Positions 7,166-63,095 of a stretch of DNA of 64,000 bases are shown here, piece by piece. Numbering within the stretch: the first letter of the stretch is position 1; each line of letters opens with the position of its first letter. Source of the DNA: a virus (Duplodnaviria > Caudoviricetes); IMG/VR virus record IMGVR_UViG_2562617147_000003, positions 10,046 through 74,045 of that record; one strand, written 5' to 3'. The notes under the pieces are model-generated. The model saw nothing but the letters and a program-made list of their open reading frames with translations. It did not search any database and was not told where the DNA came from. The position numbers were made by a program, and so were the translations under genes.

Positions 7166-8041
7166 ATGAGCCAGACTGAACAGCATTGCGCCTGTGATCC
7201 TTCCAATCTTGTCATGCTGCCCGTGCGCGGCTTCGGCCTTGCCGTGGACCCCAGCGGCCTTGTGCCCGCACCCGCCCCGGTGCTGACCTGCCGTGAGCGG
7301 GTGGACCGGGACATGCACATCTATATCAACGGCAACCTTGAAACGTCCGGCGACGGCCTGGGTCCGGAAACAGCGGTGAAAGGCTATGCGGACGCCGTGC
7401 TGGCCCTGTCGAAGTACGACGGGTGCAATCAGCACGCGGCGCATCTGCATTTTCTGTCTCTGGAGGACACGGAGGCAACCTATCCGGATTTTACTGTATT
7501 TTCTAATACATACAGCACGTTTACATCACTTCGTATCAGCGGGGAGTCCTACGAAACGACGCATCTCGGCGTCTGCTCATTCCAGATGGGAACAGTCATT
7601 GCTGTCTCTGAGGTCAGTATGCGCTCCCTTGCCTCTCTTGGATCGCACACATCTATTTCCGGCGATGTGGCTTTCAAGGCGAACGGGGAGAGTTATGCGA
7701 TGAACGTGAACTACGGAGGCTGCCTCTACATTCTGGAAAATGTGAATGTCTATTTCCATGCAGGCTCATGTACAGCTTACATGAAAATCACAAGTTCGAT
7801 GATGCTATTATGTGAAAATTCAAAATTTCATACAATTGGAAGTATTGTCGCGAGCGTAGCCTTCCTTTATGTCCAGTATAATGGCTCGATTACAATCGGA
7901 AATACTGTGGATTTTTCCGGATGTACATCTGTTTTAGGCAGAAAATACTATTTGATGGGCCTGTCATATATTAATTCAAACGGCACCACGTTGCCTGGGA
8001 CGCAGGCGCCCATGCTGGAAACCGGCAGCATTTACGTCTGA
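7166..8041 (+). CDS. Putative virion fibre/spike-like protein, paralog 1
   Basis: AAGGA RBS; DMHIYINGN...GDGL.PETAVK; beta-rich AT-richer middle. Confidence 0.65.
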   Translation: MSQTEQHCACDPSNLVMLPVRGFGLAVDPSGLVPAPAPVLTCRERVDRDMHIYINGNLETSGDGLGPETAVKGYADAVLALSKYDGCNQHAAHLHFLSLEDTEATYPDFTVFSNTYSTFTSLRISGESYETTHLGVCSFQMGTVIAVSEVSMRSLASLGSHTSISGDVAFKANGESYAMNVNYGGCLYILENVNVYFHAGSCTAYMKITSSMMLLCENSKFHTIGSIVASVAFLYVQYNGSITIGNTVDFSGCTSVLGRKYYLMGLSYINSNGTTLPGTQAPMLETGSIYV

Positions 8042-10968: not shown

Positions 10969-11492
10969 CATATCGCTTCGTGGAGGCCGACACGCCCGCG
11001 CTGCGCCGTCTGCCCTTTGAGCGCATGGAGTCCGAAGGCATCGCGCGGGCCGTGATCTGGAACCGCGTCGATCCCTGCCTGCTGGACTGGCTGGAATGCG
11101 TCAATCCCCAATATGCGCTCTGCTGGCTGGCCCATGACCGGAATAATGCCCTTGCGGGAGCCGTCTGGCTCAATCCTGTCATGGGCCTGTGCGGTTGCGT
11201 GCATTTCTGCATCTTCAAGGCGGCGCGGCCGGACTGGAAAAACCTCGGGCGTCAGGCCATCGCGCATCTGTTCCGGGCGCGGCCGCTGGCCGGGCTGCTG
11301 GCCGTCTGGCCCGCGCACTACCGCTCTGTGACCAGGGCGGCCAAGGCCTGGGGTTTCGGCAAGCCGGTGTTGCTGCCCAAAGCCTGCCACATGCCCGGCG
11401 TCCATAACCCGTCACGCTGCCGCGACGGCTTCATGGCCGTGCTGCGGCGCTCCAGCCGTTGTGACGAAGGAAACTACGGATGGAGACAGTAA
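10962..11492 (+). CDS. Hypothetical phage protein (GNAT-like); C-terminus supplied by a palindromic element
   Basis: Overlaps terL; last codons SSRCDEGNYGWRQ come from the repeat. Confidence 0.6.
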   Translation: MVTYRFVEADTPALRRLPFERMESEGIARAVIWNRVDPCLLDWLECVNPQYALCWLAHDRNNALAGAVWLNPVMGLCGCVHFCIFKAARPDWKNLGRQAIAHLFRARPLAGLLAVWPAHYRSVTRAAKAWGFGKPVLLPKACHMPGVHNPSRCRDGFMAVLRRSSRCDEGNYGWRQ

Positions 11493-11566
11493 TTGGATAC
11501 TCTCTATGCGACGCAAGGAAATTGCTGTCGCTATCCGTAAGCGGCAGAGCCGCTAACGGCTACCGC
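11449..11566. repeat. Dispersed palindromic (REP-like) element
   Basis: GCTCCAGCCGTTGTGACGAAGGAA leader, TACGGATGGAGACAG...TGCTGTCGCTATCCGTA hairpin; 11472-11566 nearly identical to 19893-19987. Confidence 0.8.
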
Positions 11567-11600
11567 AGGAAGATTTTATGAACAAACAGGAGGCATAACT

Positions 11601-13516: not shown

Positions 13517-13818
13517 AGACGCCCGCAGAGGTGGCCGCCGAACGGCAATCTCAGGAAGATGAAGCCCGCCAGGCGCGCGTGGACCTGCGCGACGTGCTGG
13601 ACACGGAAGCGGGCTGCCGCGTCTTTGCCCGCTTGCTGCATGAATTGGGGGCTGGTTCCCCCATGAAGAATGAAACCGACATGCGCCTGCGCAACGCGGC
13701 GGACTGGCTGCTGCACCAGGTTGCGGCCGCCCATCCCGCGGCCTGTCTGCGGCTTTTGGCGGAACTGCGCGGCATAGGCGGCGCTGAACTTTTAGAGCAG
13801 ATTAACTTTGAGAATTGA
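13513..13818 (+). CDS. Hypothetical phage protein (Bbp19-like)
   Basis: DLRDVLDTEAGCRVFARLL motif; overlaps portal stop. Confidence 0.65.
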   Translation: MKTPAEVAAERQSQEDEARQARVDLRDVLDTEAGCRVFARLLHELGAGSPMKNETDMRLRNAADWLLHQVAAAHPAACLRLLAELRGIGGAELLEQINFEN

Positions 13819-13831
13819 CATTCTCAAAGTT
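13804..13831. promoter_or_regulatory. Perfect 12-bp inverted repeat overlapping TTGACA upstream of the scaffold/capsid genes
   Basis: AACTTTGAGAAT-tgac-ATTCTCAAAGTT; TTGACA at 13815-13820. Confidence 0.55.
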
Positions 13832-13958
13832 TTTAAGACGCCCACTCCGGCGCTTAACCGCGCAAATAAATTGCGCTTACGCCTCCGTGGCGGGCGTCTG
13901 CTCACGCAGCCGCCAGAGCAATTTCATTTTGAAATTGCTCTAAAACAGGAGGAAACTC

Positions 13959-19000: not shown

Positions 19001-19504
19001 TCATTCGCCATCAGTGATCCCACGCCATATCGGCAGTACCAGCTGTACATTCTGCCCAAGGATGAAGTGCCGTTTTTCAAAGATTACAACTACACGTCGG
19101 TCCTGCTTACCTTCACCTTCCGTGACGCCCGGCCCGAGCTACTGGGCATTTCCAGCTACGCCACGGGCGGGGCGTGGACCATCGGCCCCGTCCCGCTGGG
19201 CGTGAACACGGAGGCTGAAATCCCGGTTCCCTTCGGCAATCTGCCCTTTTCCGTGGACGGCTCTGTGGAGGAAGAGCACGACTACCAGGTCAGAAAGCGC
19301 AGGCTGGGTGAGATGTCCGGCTGGTACAACAGCGGGTATTACGTCACCGGTGAAATCGTGTACCGCAAAAGCGACGCCGTGGTGCTGGTCACGGGAAACC
19401 ATGCCGTCAGCCAATACAACGGCGCGTACTGGAACTCGCCGTCCGTGAATACGCAAAGCAACAAGGCCAACTACTATCTCAGCCTGCAACGGAGGGGCGT
19501 GTGA
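16031..19504 (+). CDS. Tail fibre/spike: T7 gp17-like N-terminal anchor, two discoidin(F5/8)-like domains flanking a LamG/ConA-like domain
   Basis: YAVPFPIYSEKDVRV...LDRQVQMIRQL anchor; PRKWQLQGWN and CKFRLSGRN repeats; WHTVSVSQ...IHVDG...GHLNNLRVT. Confidence 0.8.
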   Translation: MIAQTSVVVRYIVTAGVLSYAVPFPIYSEKDVRVTFSTDGRTETALVPGAEYTVTVLSSGGGTVTLGSAGIVPIEAVLAVASAIPATQEADFSATTDVDTGALETQLDRQVQMIRQLEAELDRAVKVPAASEESPESVARDIYTARDAAEASAGAAGDSAARAARSAANAANSAGQSAGAAADAEYWAGRAEDAGNNGPATPGHIGGVKPRHGLSVMEDGTLDLNTGDGLEIDATENAPRVNASGIRHGVLAVAHGGTGADTAQGARDNLGLSAWQKGMEGTNPQRLRNVILSGREKDGYPAYLVGQEFIDMQHEDGVYISKRGTVSAGGEYSASHRATRPLRNQLVYQAQGWLTPNTVTSGQWEYAFADRAHVLTGLYLQNRDNEPQCFPRKWQLQGWNESSGLWEDIYRRDNDQALRGSSDNLKDNGRMYWFTENATAYRRVRINIESNHGGAYSQLAVIRLYEAVIPGLHKYDPALYATPETPFAASVACGLSADGTARTLDRPVKVTEHVVFDGRKLAEMSRNYIYVVPADESTGRLPDNLDADRAVPLPGNAAFLYADTRKLHYGTRGDIEKECFALLQSRHTVAYDPVPNGMFEMNQGAWNHPLYFQNVRVDPTEKPRGAASSYRFTGVDNWIGPNADLTAALLGKNAHPYSNECTVELDFKWNGPAPETTDDYFILFDNGYSASRGWALAYHNRKKCLALHWGSKSISNWCYHAPFNAADGTWHTVSVSQRDSNLFIHVDGVCLGAFNYVSLCNPNYRYWFLGRWIHSGSHQWYGHLNNLRVTLGTALYQGRDYAVSPAFNRGPIPDKTLWYDAAEGVVKEWQAEAGVWLKTPMLPVGHVDTGRKEHLMTDQPRGTYHLQPTKWVTDFKTDSSYDGNAGASSLFNLGYGGAHAFLSGGTNDATHAVEFMLEKPLAFESMLDFVNTRGNWNSSLCKFRLSGRNADEEAWNVLIDRSTFIDDGALLGAGVYVAPNGTSPYFGGYKSFAISDPTPYRQYQLYILPKDEVPFFKDYNYTSVLLTFTFRDARPELLGISSYATGGAWTIGPVPLGVNTEAEIPVPFGNLPFSVDGSVEEEHDYQVRKRRLGEMSGWYNSGYYVTGEIVYRKSDAVVLVTGNHAVSQYNGAYWNSPSVNTQSNKANYYLSLQRRGV

Positions 19505-19767
19505 TGCAAATTCTTACCTGGCTGACGCCCGAGGATGAAATGTATTGCGCCGCAACGCCGCGCGCGGGCCGCGACACGGCCATCGCCGACAGACCGGCGG
19601 ACATGCCGCAGGGCCGCTACAACCGGGAAAACGGGCAGTGGGAACGGGTTTACGAAGCGCCCGGGCCGCAAGACATCAGCCTGGGCGAAGCCGAACGGCT
19701 GTGGGCCTGGGCCGAAGCCCAGGGCGAGGGCATGGCGGGCATCATTCTCAAGGCGCTGGGGCTGTAA
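19504..19767 (+). CDS. Small tail-fibre-associated protein
   Basis: Overlaps tail fibre stop. Confidence 0.55.
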   Translation: MQILTWLTPEDEMYCAATPRAGRDTAIADRPADMPQGRYNRENGQWERVYEAPGPQDISLGEAERLWAWAEAQGEGMAGIILKALGL

Positions 19768-19776
19768 GAGGTCGCC

Positions 19777-19833
19777 ATGCGCGTAGTCCCGCAAAACCTT
19801 GCCATCGGAGCCACCTTGCTCCAGCCGTTGTGA
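19777..19833 (+). pseudogene. Gene stub truncated at a palindromic element
   Basis: GAGG RBS plus MRVVPQNLAIGATLLQPL*; the stop lies inside the element leader. Confidence 0.4.
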
Positions 19834-19987
19834 CGAAGGAACTTTAGCCGTAGGCGAACCTTGTGAGCCATACGGATAAAGACAGCAACGCTAACTACGG
19901 ATGGAGACAGCAGTTGGCTACTCTGTATGCGACGCAAGGAAATTGCTGTCGCTATCCGTAAGCGGCAGAGCCGCTAACGGCTACCGC
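19818..19987. repeat. Dispersed palindromic (REP-like) element
   Basis: Same leader and hairpin as the 11449-11566 copy, plus an extra half unit. Confidence 0.8.
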
Positions 19988-20009
19988 GAGATGGGGGAAA
20001 GATGCGTAA

Positions 20010-20384
20010 TCAAAAACCCAGCCAGCCGAAACCCTTGGCCATGATGGCGGCCAAAGCGACCCAGCCGCCGATCTGCCACTTGAGCAGGCGTATTTCCGTG
20101 CCCTTGATTTCGCCGCGCACCACTTCGATTTCTTTCAGCAGGCGCATTTCCGTGTTCTTGATTTCGCCGCGCACCACTTCAATTTCCTTTTGTAGGCGCA
20201 ACTCCGTCTCGCGCAGTTCCGTCTTGACGGAGGTAATGTCACCCTTGAGGTTGGTCTTGACGTCGCTCACTTCCTGCGAGGTGGCAAGCGAACCGTCGCG
20301 TTTTTCCAACACCTCCACCAGCGCGTCGAACTGTTCCTTGGTGAACGCCTTTTCGAGCTTCTTTCCGGTGTCAAACAGCAGCAT
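20010..20384 (-). CDS. DUF1640/CCDC90-like coiled-coil protein with C-terminal TM
   Basis: MLLFDT...FTKEQ, internal 11-aa repeat KEIEVVRGEIK x2, LLKWQIG. Confidence 0.75.
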   Translation of the reverse strand: MLLFDTGKKLEKAFTKEQFDALVEVLEKRDGSLATSQEVSDVKTNLKGDITSVKTELRETELRLQKEIEVVRGEIKNTEMRLLKEIEVVRGEIKGTEIRLLKWQIGGWVALAAIMAKGFGWLGF

Positions 20385-20499
20385 GCGGCCTCCGATGCCC
20401 CAGATTAGCTATAATATCAACCCTTGCCAACAGAAGAGTTTCATGCGTCAGAACCGCATCGGCAGCACTGCGGCCCTTGTGCGCGTGGGCGGGGCATAC

Positions 20500-20769
20500 T
20501 CACAATGCAAACAGATCCGCATGGCTGCCCGTGCGCTCAAAACGCACAAAGCCGTCGCCGCGCGTGTAGAGCAAAAGCCAGTCTGGTTCCATGTGGGCGT
20601 CCATAACGCCCTTCCATGGGCCCGCGAGCATATGTTCACGGCAATGTCCCGGCAGAGGCTTGCCTTCCATGATCAGGAACATGGTTTCCTTGAGCTTGCC
20701 CATGTCTTTGCCCCGCCGTTGTGCCAATCTCACGTCCCGCTTGAACCGGCCCGAATACGCAACGCGCAT
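20500..20769 (-). CDS. yafQ: YafQ-family mRNA interferase toxin
   Basis: FKRDVRLAQRRGKD...EHMLAGPW...HMEPDWLLLY...RTGSHADLF. Confidence 0.88.
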   Translation of the reverse strand: MRVAYSGRFKRDVRLAQRRGKDMGKLKETMFLIMEGKPLPGHCREHMLAGPWKGVMDAHMEPDWLLLYTRGDGFVRFERTGSHADLFAL

Positions 20770-20772
20770 GTC

Positions 20773-21033
20773 TTATACGCCCAATTGTCTGAAAAGATCG
20801 TCAGCGTCAGCGGCCGTGTGGACATCCTCGCCGCGTGCGGATTTGTCCAGCGTTTCCTCAGTCATGGCGTTGGGAATCAATTCCAGGGGAAAGCGTCCGT
20901 CGCGGGCGATGCGCGTCAGAAGAATACGTACCGCGTCCGAAACCGAGAGGCCCATTTCGCCCAGCACCACTGCCGCTCGGGTCTTCAGGGCGGGATCCAC
21001 GCGCGCCTGTACAAGATTGTTCATGATGTTCAC
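20773..21033 (-). CDS. dinJ: DinJ/RelB antitoxin
   Basis: VQARVDPALK..A..VLGEMGLSVSDAVRILLTRIA...PLEL.PNA.T. Confidence 0.88.
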   Translation of the reverse strand: MNIMNNLVQARVDPALKTRAAVVLGEMGLSVSDAVRILLTRIARDGRFPLELIPNAMTEETLDKSARGEDVHTAADADDLFRQLGV

Positions 21034-21043
21034 CTCCTTGAAA

Positions 21044-21072
21044 AATGTAATTCATTTGTATGCTATTGGCAA
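21044..21072 (-). promoter_or_regulatory. Sigma70-type promoter of dinJ-yafQ
   Basis: TTGCCA-17 nt-TACATT on the minus strand. Confidence 0.5.
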
Positions 21073-21095
21073 GATCTGAACAGGGGAAGTTAGCT

Positions 21096-21665
21096 ATGCG
21101 CCACAACCGTACCAGCATCATCAATACGGCCCTCATGCGCGTGGGGGCCCAGGGTGTCACCGCCGCTTTTCAGGATGCGCCCGCGGCTCAAACGGCTGCC
21201 GCCGCTTATGACCGGGTCCTGGCCTACTGCCTGTCCCTGCATCCGTGGAGCTTCGCCATGCGGCATGCGGCCCTGGCCCGAGGCACGGAAAGCCCGGCGC
21301 CGGGTTGGCGTTACGCCTGGCCCCTGCCCGCCGACTGCCTGCGGGTGGTGACTGCCGCGGCGGACGGCGGGGAACAGCATATTTGCTACTCCCTGGCCGG
21401 AGATGCCCTGCAAGCGGATGCCGCCGCCGTGATTGTCAGTTACGTCAGTTCCGAAGCCGCATCATTCCCGGACGCTTTCGCCGATGCCCTGGCCTGGCGC
21501 GTGGCCCTGGAGATCGCCCCCTACGTGCAGCAGGGCGGCGGCAATGCCCGCGACTATCTGGAAATGTTCGAGCGTGCCCTGGACCGGGCCAAAGTGGAAA
21601 ACGACATGCAGCGGCCCGAACGCGTCTGCCGGTCCTCCTTCCTTAAAGAGCGGATGGTTTTCTGA
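21096..21665 (+). CDS. Tail tubular protein A (T7 gp11-like adaptor)
   Basis: IINTALMRVG, LHPWSFAMR, WRYAWPLPADCLRV, FADALAWRVALEIA. Confidence 0.82.
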   Translation: MRHNRTSIINTALMRVGAQGVTAAFQDAPAAQTAAAAYDRVLAYCLSLHPWSFAMRHAALARGTESPAPGWRYAWPLPADCLRVVTAAADGGEQHICYSLAGDALQADAAAVIVSYVSSEAASFPDAFADALAWRVALEIAPYVQQGGGNARDYLEMFERALDRAKVENDMQRPERVCRSSFLKERMVF

Positions 21666-22486
21666 TGCCCCTTTACCATATTCAGAATGTCCTCAACGGC
21701 GGCGAGATCACCCCCCTGATGCGCGGGAGGGTGGATCAGCCCCGCTGCGGCAGCCGTCGGCGAGTCTTCGAGCCTTACGGATGGCGACAGCAGGGTTACA
21801 GGAGCGTTTGATATGCCCTTATATCACATTCAGAATGTCCTCAACGGCGGCGAGATCACCCCCCTGATGCGCGGGAGGGTGGATCAGCCCCGCTGCGGCA
21901 GCCGTCGGCGAGTCTTCGAGCCTTACGGATGGCGACAGCAGGGTTACAGGAGCGTTTGATATGCCCTTATATCACATTCAAAATGTCCTCAACGGCGGCG
22001 AGATCACCCCCCTGATGCGCGGGAGGGTGGATCAGCCCCGCTGCGGCAGCCGTCGGCGAGTCTTCGAGCCTTACGGATGGCGACAGCAGGGTTACAGGAG
22101 CGTTTGATATGCCCTTATATCACATTCAAAATGTCCTCAACGGCGGCGAGATCACCCCCCTGATGCGCGGGAGGGTGGATCAGCCCCGCTGCGGCAGCCG
22201 TCGGCGAGTCTTCGAGCCTTACGGATGGCGACAGCAGGGTTACAGGAGCGTTTGATATGCCCTTATATCACATTCAGAATGTCCTCAACGGCGGCGAGAT
22301 CACCCCCCTGATGCGCGGGAGGGTGGATCAGCCCCGCTGCGGCAGCCGTCGGCGAGTCTTCGAGCCTTACGGATGGCGACAGCAGGGTTACAGGAGCGTT
22401 TGATATGCCCTTATATCACATTCAGAATGTCCTCAACGGCGGCGAGATCACCCCCCTGATGCGCGGGAGGGTGGATCAGCCCCGCT
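21665..22486 (+). repeat. Tandem array: five 148-bp units plus a sixth partial unit that is the true start of tail tubular B; each unit encodes a 48-aa ORF
   Basis: ATGs at 21665, 21813, 21961, 22109, 22257, 22405; unit = first 27 codons of the gene plus 66 bp of palindromic-element-derived DNA with AGGAG. Confidence 0.95.
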
Positions 22487-24495
22487 ACGGCACCGGCGCG
22501 CGCGAGATGCGCAACTTTGTTCCCATGCCCCAGGGCGGCGTCACGCGCAGGCCCGGCACGCGCTTTTTAGGCATGGCGCACGGCGACGCGGCGCGCCTGA
22601 TTCCCTTTGTCTTTTCCGCGACGCAAGGGCGCATGCTGGAATTCGGAGATAAAACCTTGCGCGTCTGGCTTCCGGATGGCCGTTTGGTGGCGGATGAAAA
22701 CGGTGAGCCGAAGGTTTTCGAATCCCCCTATGCCGTCGGCGACCTGCACGAGCTGCGCTTTGCCCAATCCGCGGACGTGGTCTATCTCGCCCATCAGGGC
22801 TATGCCCCGCGCAGGCTCTCCCGCCATGCCGATGACGACTGGCGCTGGAGCGAGCTGGCCTTTGTGCCGGCCATCGCCGCTCCCGACAACGTCAGCCTGC
22901 AGGTCATCGACCGGGGATACAATGGCGACAACGCCACGCGCGTTTACACCTATGCCGTTACGGCCGTGGATGAGAAGACCGGGCAGGAATCCGGCGCCGG
23001 AGCCGAGGTCAGCATCACGGCCAAGGCCCTCAATTCCGTGAGCTACATCATCCGCGCCGCCTGGCCCGCCGTGGAGGGTGCGGCCTACTATCGGGTGTAC
23101 AAAAAGAAATACGGCGTGTTCGGCTATATCGGCAGGTCCGACGCGGAATGCTCCTTTGACGATGAGAACATCGGCGCGGACACCGAGGACACGCCGCCCG
23201 AGCACAAGAATCCGTTCGCTTCGGAAGGCGACTGGCCTTCACAGGTCTTTTTTCACCAGCAACGTCTGGGCTGGGCCGCTACGGCCAACAGGCCGATTAC
23301 CATCTGGCTCTCGCGCCCCGGTGACTTTGAAATCATGGCCGCGTCCACCCCGCCCAAGGATGACGACGCCATTGAAGCCACCCTGGCCGCCACCCAGGCC
23401 AACCGCATCGTCTGGCTGCAGCCGGACCGTCAGTCCCTGACCTTCGGCACCGAAGGCAGCGAATGGACGCTTTCAGCCGGTGAGGGCGTGGCCCTGACGC
23501 CCTCCAATGTCAGCTTTGAAATGCAGACCGCCAACGGCGGCGACAACGCGACACAGGCCGTTTCCGTGGGCGGCGGCGTGCTCTACCTCCAGCGCGGCGG
23601 CAAGGCTGTGCGCCAGTTCGCCTACAATTACAGCGCGGACAAATATCTGGGCCAGGACGTTACCATTCTGGCCCGGCACATCCTGCGCGACGCGGTCGTG
23701 ACGGCCTGGGCCTTCCAGCAGGAGCCCTACGCCGTGCTCTGGTGCGCGCTTTCCGACGGCACCCTGGCCGGACTCACCTACATGCCGGAACAGGACGTCA
23801 TGGGCTGGCACCGCCACGACACGGACGGGCGCTTTGAGGACGTGGCCGCCATGCCCGGCACGCCCGACGACCAGACCTGGTTTCTGGTGCGGCGGGGTTG
23901 CGGGCTTTGTGTGGAACGGCTGGACAGCTTCTTTGACTCCGATGAGCTGGCGGAAGCCTATTTCCTGGACAGCGCGCTCAATTACCAGGGCGCGGCGGTC
24001 ACGCGGTTCAGCGGGCTTGATCATCTTGCCGGACGCACGGTTCAGGTTTTTGCCGACGGCGGAACCATTGACGGCCTGGCAGTGGATGCGGACGGCGGCC
24101 TGACCCTGCCCCGGCCCGCGTCCAGCGTGCATGCGGGCCTGCCGTACACGTCGCGCCTTGTGCCCAATCTGCCTGAAATTCAGACCCCACAGGGCTCAAG
24201 CATGATGCACAACCGCAAAATTTCCGCCGTGCGGCTCCGAACCTACCGCAGTATGTCCTTCCTGGCCGGGCTGGAAGGAAACCTTACCCCTATTGTGGAC
24301 AGACATATCCGCTCCGGGGCGTTCCGGACGCAGCCTTTTTTCAGCGACGGGACAGACCTTGCCCTGGACGTCTGCGGCGGCTGGGCCGACGAGTCGCCGC
24401 TTGTCCTGGAAGTGAACAGCCCTGCGCCGCTGACTGTTCTGGCCATCTCCACAGCCGTGGATGCTTCTCCGTATTCCGGAATGGGAGGGTTCTAA
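22405..24495 (+). CDS. Tail tubular protein B / nozzle (T7 gp12, P22 gp10-like)
   Basis: NGGEITP, GGVTRRPGTRF, FAQSADV, PSQVFFHQQRL, EQDVMGWHRH. Confidence 0.88.
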   Translation: MPLYHIQNVLNGGEITPLMRGRVDQPRYGTGAREMRNFVPMPQGGVTRRPGTRFLGMAHGDAARLIPFVFSATQGRMLEFGDKTLRVWLPDGRLVADENGEPKVFESPYAVGDLHELRFAQSADVVYLAHQGYAPRRLSRHADDDWRWSELAFVPAIAAPDNVSLQVIDRGYNGDNATRVYTYAVTAVDEKTGQESGAGAEVSITAKALNSVSYIIRAAWPAVEGAAYYRVYKKKYGVFGYIGRSDAECSFDDENIGADTEDTPPEHKNPFASEGDWPSQVFFHQQRLGWAATANRPITIWLSRPGDFEIMAASTPPKDDDAIEATLAATQANRIVWLQPDRQSLTFGTEGSEWTLSAGEGVALTPSNVSFEMQTANGGDNATQAVSVGGGVLYLQRGGKAVRQFAYNYSADKYLGQDVTILARHILRDAVVTAWAFQQEPYAVLWCALSDGTLAGLTYMPEQDVMGWHRHDTDGRFEDVAAMPGTPDDQTWFLVRRGCGLCVERLDSFFDSDELAEAYFLDSALNYQGAAVTRFSGLDHLAGRTVQVFADGGTIDGLAVDADGGLTLPRPASSVHAGLPYTSRLVPNLPEIQTPQGSSMMHNRKISAVRLRTYRSMSFLAGLEGNLTPIVDRHIRSGAFRTQPFFSDGTDLALDVCGGWADESPLVLEVNSPAPLTVLAISTAVDASPYSGMGGF

Positions 24496-62594: not shown

Positions 62595-62674
62595 CCGGCC
62601 TATGCTTTTCTCAAATACGCTCCTGCGCTTGAGTGAATCCGGGCGGCTGGCTCGTCAGGCCGTGGGTTCCGATC

Positions 62675-63095
62675 CCACGACGACGCTGGCCGCAAAAGCG
62701 CCAGCGTTTCGCCTTCCAAAGACAGTATTCAGTAACATTTGGCCCTTTTCAGCTACCTTTCAGATTCAATGTCGGCCTTAATAGGTCCGTACTGCGCTTC
62801 CATTTTTTCAAGTATTTCTCTGGCGCAGTCTGCCCATGCATCAGCGGAAACAAACCAGTTTGTTTTCATCTTTTCTGCCAACTCGCCGCTTTTATGTTGT
62901 GTTATGACCATCTCACTAAAAGTTTTCAGGGCCTGAAGAACAAAGGGCTGAATAATCGCACCACGGCGCGAAAACATCATCAGGTCTCTGACAAATTCGT
63001 CATTTGTTTTTTGCTTGGGCAAGATCATGCTCCTTTGAACATCGCAAACCTTTTCCACGACGACGCTGGCCGCAAATGCGCCAGCGTTTCGCCTT
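62675..63095. repeat. 41-bp direct repeat pair (62675-62715, 63055-63095) with internal hairpin
   Basis: CCACGACGACGCTGGCCGCAAA(A/T)GCGCCAGCGTTTCGCCTT, one mismatch. Confidence 0.85.
62753..63028 (-). CDS. Hypothetical protein between the 41-bp repeats
   Basis: AGGAG RBS before MILPKQK. Confidence 0.6.
   Translation of the reverse strand: MILPKQKTNDEFVRDLMMFSRRGAIIQPFVLQALKTFSEMVITQHKSGELAEKMKTNWFVSADAWADCAREILEKMEAQYGPIKADIESER

Follow-up and report, generated by a model that had tools for sequence, protein, structure and literature searches.

A variable array of nozzle-derived minigenes and REP-like hairpins ahead of the tail nozzle gene of a Desulfovibrionaceae prophage

The stretch of DNA analyzed here (64,000 nucleotides, hereafter the window) comprises bases 10046-74045 of the 74-kb IMG/VR provirus record IMGVR_UViG_2562617147_000003, and belongs to a temperate podophage with a T7-like tail that is integrated in a gut Desulfovibrionaceae genome. 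At the start of its tail nozzle gene lies a tandem array of five short open reading frames (ORFs), each of which joins the first codons of that gene to a palindromic element resembling the repetitive extragenic palindromic (REP) sequences of bacteria. The upstream part of the phage encodes a CI-like repressor, a Sak4-like protein, a helicase, a Cas4/HNH exonuclease, a primase, the large terminase and the portal. As in a T7-type tail module, adjoining adaptor and nozzle genes are followed by genes for internal virion proteins, with a T7_gp14-like protein and matches to phrog_418, phrog_342 and phrog_684. No tRNAs were found. The features of the nozzle locus are as follows; the start of the adaptor gene was set from relatives and from the gene called in the contig L116 (see below).

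21096-21665, plus strand: adaptor gene (gp11-like, 'tail tubular A'), matching phrog_394 ('tail protein', 5e-40), phrog_9239 ('tail tubular protein') and, weakly, SU10_adaptor
21665-21811, plus strand: decoy minigene 1, 48 amino acids, ancestral-type start CCC CTT TAC CAT, TGATG-coupled to the adaptor gene; the same first copy occurs in every array found
21744-21791, plus strand: REP-like hairpin of unit 1, arms GCTGCGGCAGCCGT / ACGGATGGCGACAGC, identified by exact repeats, predicted fold and a match to the host family
21800-21815, plus strand: restart signal, AGGAG at 21800-21804, TGA at 21809-21811, one T, ATG at 21813; recurs at each unit junction, every 148 bp
21813-21959, plus strand: decoy minigene 2, 48 amino acids, recoded start TTA TAT CAC (this and the next three from ORF and unit alignment)
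21961-22107, plus strand: decoy minigene 3, 48 amino acids, recoded start, codon 7 CAA
22109-22255, plus strand: decoy minigene 4, 48 amino acids, recoded start, codon 7 CAA
22257-22403, plus strand: decoy minigene 5, 48 amino acids, recoded start
22405-24495, plus strand: nozzle gene (gp12-like, 'tail tubular B'), 696 amino acids, recoded start, own AGGAG, matching phrog_376 (6e-169) and PDB 8CK1 ('Tail Nozzle', 2e-79)

The matches of the flanking genes uphold the names tail tubular A and B given to them in an earlier reading of the sequence (the original prediction), which had also proposed that five decoy ORFs precede the nozzle gene. The latter is borne out both by the list of ORFs, in which frames of 48 amino acids begin at 21665, 21813, 21961, 22109 and 22257 and the 696-amino-acid gene comes next at 22405, and by Tandem Repeats Finder, which reports at 21665-22492 a repeat of period 148 with 5.6 copies and 98% matches (score 1607). 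All five short ORFs encode the same peptide. Each 148-bp unit combines 82 bp from the 5' end of the nozzle gene with a 48-nt hairpin and ~20 bp that contain AGGAG and TGA-T-ATG; the units are near-identical and stand head-to-tail as direct repeats, the arrangement expected of a tandem amplification, and copies 2-5 show 0-1 differences from one another. Four unit positions (7, 9, 12 and 15) set copy 1 apart from copies 2-6, all of them synonymous changes by which the codons at the start read CTT TAC CAT in copy 1 and TTA TAT CAC in all later copies, and a G>A change at unit position 21 (CAG>CAA) is present in copies 3 and 4; alignment of the units thus agrees with the prediction on both counts.

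The signals for translation recur with the unit. At its end, AGGAG is followed by 8 nt and an ATG, with a TGA one base ahead of that ATG, whereas the ATG of copy 1 overlaps the adaptor stop codon (TGATG, in which the TGA and the ATG share the A); the fresh AGGAG and TGA-T-ATG of each unit and the coupling of copy 1 had both been predicted and can be read directly in the sequence. Also present is the proposed microhomology at the junction (CGCTACGGCACCGG in the gene, CGCTGCGGCAGCCG in the unit), and the point at which these two diverge is the point at which the periodicity ends. The join point, at unit position 82/83, lies at a short homology whose partner is the left arm of the REP-like hairpin.

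The palindromic element in host chromosomes and in the phage

The element is an imperfect hairpin by predicted fold (unit positions 80-127; fold z-scores of -2.5 to -4.1), and is repeated at 21892-21939, 22040-22087, 22188-22235 and 22336-22383. The hairpin part of the unit is matched at 81-98% identity in ~68 of 401 Desulfovibrionaceae genomes. In five such genomes of 3.5-4.3 Mb, a 15-nt core, with up to 2 mismatches allowed, occurs 79-133 times per genome, compared with 7-10 times for a reversed control, and its copies are scattered across the host chromosome. Host copies read GTGCGGCAGCCGTTAKGYGAG...CGARCMTTACGGATGGCGACCGCA, nearly the same as the unit, and one host genome contains tandem arrays of a 51-bp REP-like unit. 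An alignment of 21 host and phage copies contains compensatory changes in 5 of 13 consensus stem pairs. In its high dispersed copy number, tandem arrays and covarying stem pairs the element behaves like a repeat of the REP or bacterial interspersed mosaic element (BIME) type.

The likeness to REP, BIME and REPIN (REP doublet forming hairpin) sequences extends to the ~48-nt imperfect palindrome with a conserved arm and a covarying inner stem, to the ~80-130 dispersed copies per genome, and to the inverted doublets, tandem clusters and partly intergenic placement seen in the phage. The sequence itself, however, is unrelated to the REP of E. coli, and in the array the element lies inside translated ORFs. 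Moreover, the Y1 HUH transposase (PF01797) that would correspond to a REP-associated tyrosine transposase (RAYT) had no match in 3 of the 5 element-rich genomes (there were IS200-like copies in one of the other two, and a broken Y1 match in another), and at the gathering threshold no Rfam family fell on the element anywhere in the record. A search of a paper library found no description of the phage, the array or the repeat family.

Several other readings of the element were discarded. Because it is present in high copy in host chromosomes, we dropped the idea of a phage-specific operator, iteron or promoter; by eye, the core fits neither a sigma-54 nor a sigma-70 site. The TTGAT ahead of the ATG had suggested an IS200 or palindrome-associated transposable element (PATE), an idea likewise dropped, there being no transposase in the record and no Y1_Tnp in the three genomes just mentioned.

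Elsewhere in the phage, four loci with the element lie between genes; apart from the copies inside the decoy ORFs, one forms a C-terminus and one a gene end. The following lie in the window (no strand assigned).

1523-1675: three REP-like copies, recognized as related copies, with the Cas4/HNH exonuclease gene on one side and the primase domain on the other
11446-11582: composite (convergent double) REP-like element, an insertion not found in two related prophages
19827-20004: composite (convergent double) REP-like element upstream of a minus-strand cassette (124-amino-acid ORF, YafQ, RelB), ~95% identical to the 11.5-kb copy

The element at 11446-11582 is present in one and absent from another of prophages that are 98.6-99% identical, has an AACGG microhomology at its junction and an altered adjoining spacer, and gives the upstream ORF a new C-terminus, ...YGWRQ*. 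What looks like an event parallel to the insertion at the nozzle start is thus visible within the same phage.

Stem-loops are known to mark such sites in other phages. The promoter early stem-loop (PeSL) cassettes of T4-type phages are short, conserved, phage-specific stem-loops with an early promoter and a terminator at gene or module boundaries, and at these sites close relatives differ by insertions, deletions and replacements (PMC2839356, PMC4122927). The element described here resembles them in marking, at module boundaries, the indels between close relatives (at 11446-11582 and at the nozzle start). Unlike them, it belongs to a host chromosomal repeat family; as to a promoter and a terminator, a promoter-like site that matches at 9 of 12 positions arises at the unit junction, and no T-tract follows the hairpins. 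An apparently undescribed REP-like family of the Desulfovibrionaceae marks recombination points in their prophages. It is also one that can mislead assemblers as well as gene callers, which would report five 'hypothetical proteins' at the nozzle locus.

Further copies were noted in passing. A tandem array of 6 x 48 bp of the REP-like hairpin lies ~2.6 kb upstream of the window (L009/G000, 7169-7456), where it immediately follows a phrog_2300 gene of the replication module, and falls into blocks of copies 1-3, 4 and 5-6; the related provirus G001 starts within the same 48-bp array, with at least 4 copies. In a contig of D. piger ATCC 29098, three inverted REP-like doublets stand 7-8 kb apart at 265-280 kb (L048:10134-10287, L048:17799-17951 and L049:4932-5084), a region that may be a different prophage. 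Ahead of many host copies lies an additional conserved stretch, GGCAAGGAAAACAAGCCTGCCATGAGGGAG, a sign that the repeat unit may be larger.

The number of units among relatives and in the source strain

Among more distant relatives, drawn from genomes of Desulfovibrio, Bilophila and Mailhella as well as IMG/VR proviruses and with nozzle proteins 68-91% identical to that of the window, all 17 have a plain adaptor-cTGATG-nozzle arrangement with no insert. By exact look-up, the 48-amino-acid product is listed in 45 blocks of the collection, and 23 contigs were read. The ten loci shown by this look-up are mostly from metagenome-labeled ENA assemblies, and DNA identity to the window within the lineage is 98-99.5%. 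Extra units were counted directly, as follows.

1 extra unit (the commonest state): L010, L108, L110, L111 (and 10 similar places), L113 and L114
2 extra units: L117, and L115 (with an N gap)
3 extra units: L112
5 extra units: L116, which is NCBI contig ADDR02000002.1 of assembly GCA_000145315.2

The flanks of the L116 array (up to 21664 and from 22487) are 100% identical to the window and it has the same five units; this contig is therefore taken to be the window's own source and not independent support. The state without extra units also occurs close by, in L119, whose adaptor protein is identical to that of the window, and in a contig of run X6 that joins 21747 to 22488, skipping 740 bp. 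The locus is thus polymorphic for 0, 1, 2, 3 or 5 extra units at 98-100% identity. Since other assemblies carry 1, 2 or 3 units, the array, which is present in many assemblies and persists in many gut samples, is not a one-off product of assembly. Every array opens with a CTT TAC CAT copy, after which each further copy has TTA TAT CAC. Which copies differ at the CAG/CAA site varies from strain to strain, as exchange of sequence between copies would lead one to expect.

The number five is a separate matter. In the isolate runs X1, X2 and X4, the Logan contigs break at the repeat, and we compared the depth of a 141-bp junction-specific contig with that of the flanks. In X1 and X2, the isolate runs that hold 95% of the words, the ratios were ~2x (29.2 over ~15) and ~3.3x (86.4 over 26); in X4, which has single-nucleotide polymorphisms typical of a second, related prophage, the ratio was ~1.35x (28.1 over 20.8). 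As the junction contig is deeper than the flanks, multi-copy arrays are real in at least two isolates. It is possible, though we consider it doubtful, that the duplication is real but that five overstates it, or describes one molecule from a mixed population, and that the typical number in the strain is lower. Indeed, the junction ratios in X2 and X1, together with depths of 4.4x and 3.1x for a shared 67-bp core, can be set against the ~4.5x and 5.7x that, by our arithmetic, five units would predict, and the N gaps inside the array in scaffolds L109 and L115 indicate that assemblers struggle here. Assemblers usually collapse tandem repeats, however, and seldom expand them; the CAA variant forms a block (copies 3 and 4) that calls for reads spanning distinct units; the five-unit contig comes from a second-version NCBI assembly; and contig depths are rough, and variant words may have been dropped. 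The population of the source strain may be mixed in unit number.

Origin of the array and its possible consequences

Taken together, the findings make it probable, in our view, that microhomology recombination followed by unequal crossover built a genomic accordion that is tolerated by the phage, with the peptides as by-products. In the founding step, nozzle codons 27-30, which resemble the left arm of the hairpin, would have taken part in an illegitimate microhomology recombination or copy-choice event joining nozzle codon 27/28 to a REP hairpin that lay ahead of a second, diverged nozzle start with its own ribosome-binding site, and the product would have been one minigene plus an intact gene, that is, the one-unit state. 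Homologous unequal crossover or slippage between the direct repeats would then have given 2, 3 or 5 extra units, or a collapse to 0, and collapse by this route would regenerate an ancestral-looking gene. Unequal crossover in a one-unit founder, if it took place within the identical positions 16-82, would yield just the order of copies observed, namely a first copy of ancestral type followed by recoded ones.

Such a founder would need a second allele, for three reasons. First, the 15 recoded bases occur in none of the relatives compared. Second, the tail of the unit, ACAGGAGCG-TTTGA-T-ATG CCC TTA TAT, resembles the nozzle start of the distant relative G031, ACAGGAGG-TTTAA-C-ATG CCT TTT TTT, where the nozzle gene comes after a fiber-associated gene and not after the adaptor gene; with its own ACAGGAGG Shine-Dalgarno (SD) sequence, a stop codon, one base and then the ATG, G031 indicates that a second start architecture exists. 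Third, two of the decoy copies (L112:2501-2648 and L117:2167-2314) contain runs of consecutive synonymous third-position changes; in codons 15-18 of that in L112, for example, ATC ACC CCC CTG has become ATA ACT CCG CTT, which breaks a C6 homopolymer. These runs look like patches imported from a diverged nozzle allele, which suggests that diverged alleles do recombine into the 82-bp segment. The original prediction had proposed capture of a second allele, or an element-supplied replacement start, followed by amplification. The relatives without an insert, the one-unit strains, the order of the copies and the G031 start all favor this sequence of events, and the donor is the part that was not found.

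That gap is one of several points that weigh against the reading we prefer. No clean donor allele, with the hairpin, the SD sequence and the TTA TAT CAC start but no decoy ahead of them, came to light. Scans for the exact pattern of the recoded start returned only the record of L010 and the locus L042, in which a 91-amino-acid ORF, a REP-like element and an SD sequence precede a recoded nozzle gene at 1.1x coverage. L042 shares exactly 22 bases with both of the contexts that it joins and, as a candidate donor, may be either a natural recombinant or an assembly chimera. The one-unit form, moreover, persists across strains that differ by up to 1.6%, among the 45 blocks listed; since it could collapse to a viable ancestral form, it may be favored rather than neutral. 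In the part of the decoys that derives from the nozzle gene, synonymous changes prevail (8 versus 1), a bias that would fit selection on the peptide and would also fit conversion from the real gene. Finally, k-mer depth points to ~2-3.3 units and does not confirm the count of five.

The 91-amino-acid ORF of L042 has relatives elsewhere. In L052 (757-1552) and L053 (612-1407), one a metagenome-labeled ENA assembly and the other a Logan assembly of a public run, this ORF is followed by a REP-like hairpin of its own, with a covarying stem (TGCCCGT/ACGGGCA), and then by a bAvd gene. In the related proviruses G002 and G004, homologs of the ORF lie just upstream of the adaptor gene; the gene contexts of distant homologs were uninformative. 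bAvd is an accessory gene of diversity-generating retroelements. A link to such retroelements was rejected: a tblastn search of G000-G004 with this Avd gave no hit, nor are the substitutions specific to adenine.

That the array is tolerated follows from the geometry of the junctions, each of which allows termination and restart, and from the intact nozzle frame behind a good SD sequence. With a stop codon one base before an SD-led ATG in every unit, ribosomes can restart and the full-length nozzle should still be made; we infer that it is. The insertion would have spared the gene because the junction carried the first 27 codons for a second time, along with a start codon and a ribosome-binding site, and a host-type palindrome could in this way enter an essential structural gene of the phage without killing it. 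Any effect of the array on nozzle expression is probably modest, and the 48-amino-acid peptides are most likely by-products. The two roles that the original prediction suggested, tuning of nozzle translation and interference by the peptides, find no support in the analyses.

It is unlikely, on balance, that the array is instead a selected device for expression, which would uncouple the nozzle from the adaptor gene, give it a strong SD sequence and use the hairpins to stabilize or process upstream mRNA, with a weak promoter at each junction and a copy number that sets the adaptor:nozzle ratio or late-gene output. The new start does have AGGAG at 8 nt where the ancestral one has TGATG coupling and a poor GGATGG; for the opening of the ribosome-binding region, however, the energies predicted with and without recoding lie only ~1 kcal/mol apart. 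A promoter-like TTGATA-17-CAGAAT is present at every unit junction, such that 19400-22700 contains 6 promoter-like sites (5 of them the junction sites) compared with the 1.2 expected from shuffles, but the match extends to only 9 of 12 positions. In E. coli, REP elements stabilize upstream mRNA and modulate translation, and here the same hairpin has been multiplied in tandem elsewhere in the phage (6 x 48 bp) and in hosts. A selected role would fit the wide spread of the one-unit allele, which has been retained over 1-1.6% divergence; against it, all of the more distant relatives do without an array, and near-identical phages have 0, 1, 2, 3 or 5 units with no sign of an optimum.

More broadly, we regard it as quite improbable that the array, through its peptides, its translated hairpins or both, is a selected and fast-adjusting control on tail assembly, with 0-5 units serving as a heritable dial. 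Were this so, the array would fix the ratio of nozzle to adaptor or would act as a poison in tail assembly, either the prophage's own or that of superinfecting relatives, and unequal crossover would act as a dial on virion yield in gut Desulfovibrionaceae lysogens. Least credible of all is a functional 48-amino-acid peptide in which the conserved N-terminus of the nozzle (NVLNGGEITPLMRGRVDQPR) would compete for the nozzle docking site in tail assembly and so lower the yield of the phage's own virions or interfere with superinfecting relatives, in a dose set by copy number. In its favor, conservation of the nozzle N-terminal segment is strong and reaches from these prophages to cyanophage Carin-1, which suggests a structural contact, all decoys have good translation signals, and frame and stop are intact in 18 of 18 decoy copies examined, 17 with the identical peptide (a count that includes, for each locus, the copy through which it was looked up and which is bound to be identical). 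Against it, recent duplication and conversion by the real gene would themselves make the copies alike, one copy has R20C and Y38C, the 21-amino-acid tail is a translated REP hairpin whose YGWRQ string also ends the unrelated ORF at 11.5 kb, and a 27-residue fragment of a larger domain would be unlikely to fold alone.

What is new here is the REP-like family in host chromosomes and the series of 0-5 units; the kinds of event and structure to which they belong, REP-associated amplification and translated leader minigenes, are known. REP sequences were reportedly found at the join points of tandem duplications in Salmonella by Shyamala et al. in 1990, and genomic accordions are said to have been described in poxviruses by Elde et al. 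in 2012. The array resembles such gene amplifications in its head-to-tail, near-identical units with a palindrome and microhomology at the join point, in a copy number of 0-5 among near-identical genomes, and in a collapse that restores the ancestral form. It is unlike them in that the unit is only 148 bp and holds the first 27 codons, so that translated minigenes rather than gene dosage are multiplied, and in that the founding junction would have joined two different alleles and not arisen in a simple sister-strand event. A duplication followed by recombinational expansion is the standard two-step model in bacteria (PMC2656507).

As in the leader minigenes and reinitiation sites of phage operons, the ORFs are short and each stop codon lies one base from the next SD-led ATG; unlike those minigenes, the five ORFs copy the N-terminus of the downstream gene itself, and no logic of stalling or attenuation is evident. 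The locus offers, in a prophage lineage of the human gut, a genomic accordion that is both natural and small, with states of 0, 1, 2, 3 and 5 units to compare; it lends itself to asking whether the proportions of the tail proteins respond to translated leader minigenes and REP hairpins.

Other features of the window

Between the REP-like doublet at 19.9 kb and the adaptor gene (20010-21024), the minus strand carries a 124-amino-acid ORF, a YafQ-family toxin gene (20500-20769) and a RelB gene (20773-21024), of which the latter two form a toxin-antitoxin moron within the tail module; a plus-strand ORF of 363 amino acids at 20002-21093 is probably spurious. Within the 124-amino-acid ORF lies a 54-bp tandem repeat (20079-20207; 2.4 copies, 84% matches) that is also present in a related provirus (L010, 2412-2540). 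A 149-bp insertion between the portal and protease genes (13794-13942), not present in two related prophages, has terminal inverted repeats (AGAGCA/TGCTCT), three perfect internal hairpins and a TTGACA motif; it resembles a miniature inverted-repeat transposable element and has no relation to the REP-like family. On the minus strand, 62641-62714 gives a full-length Rfam match to the Hammerhead_II ribozyme (42.3 bits against a gathering score of 37).

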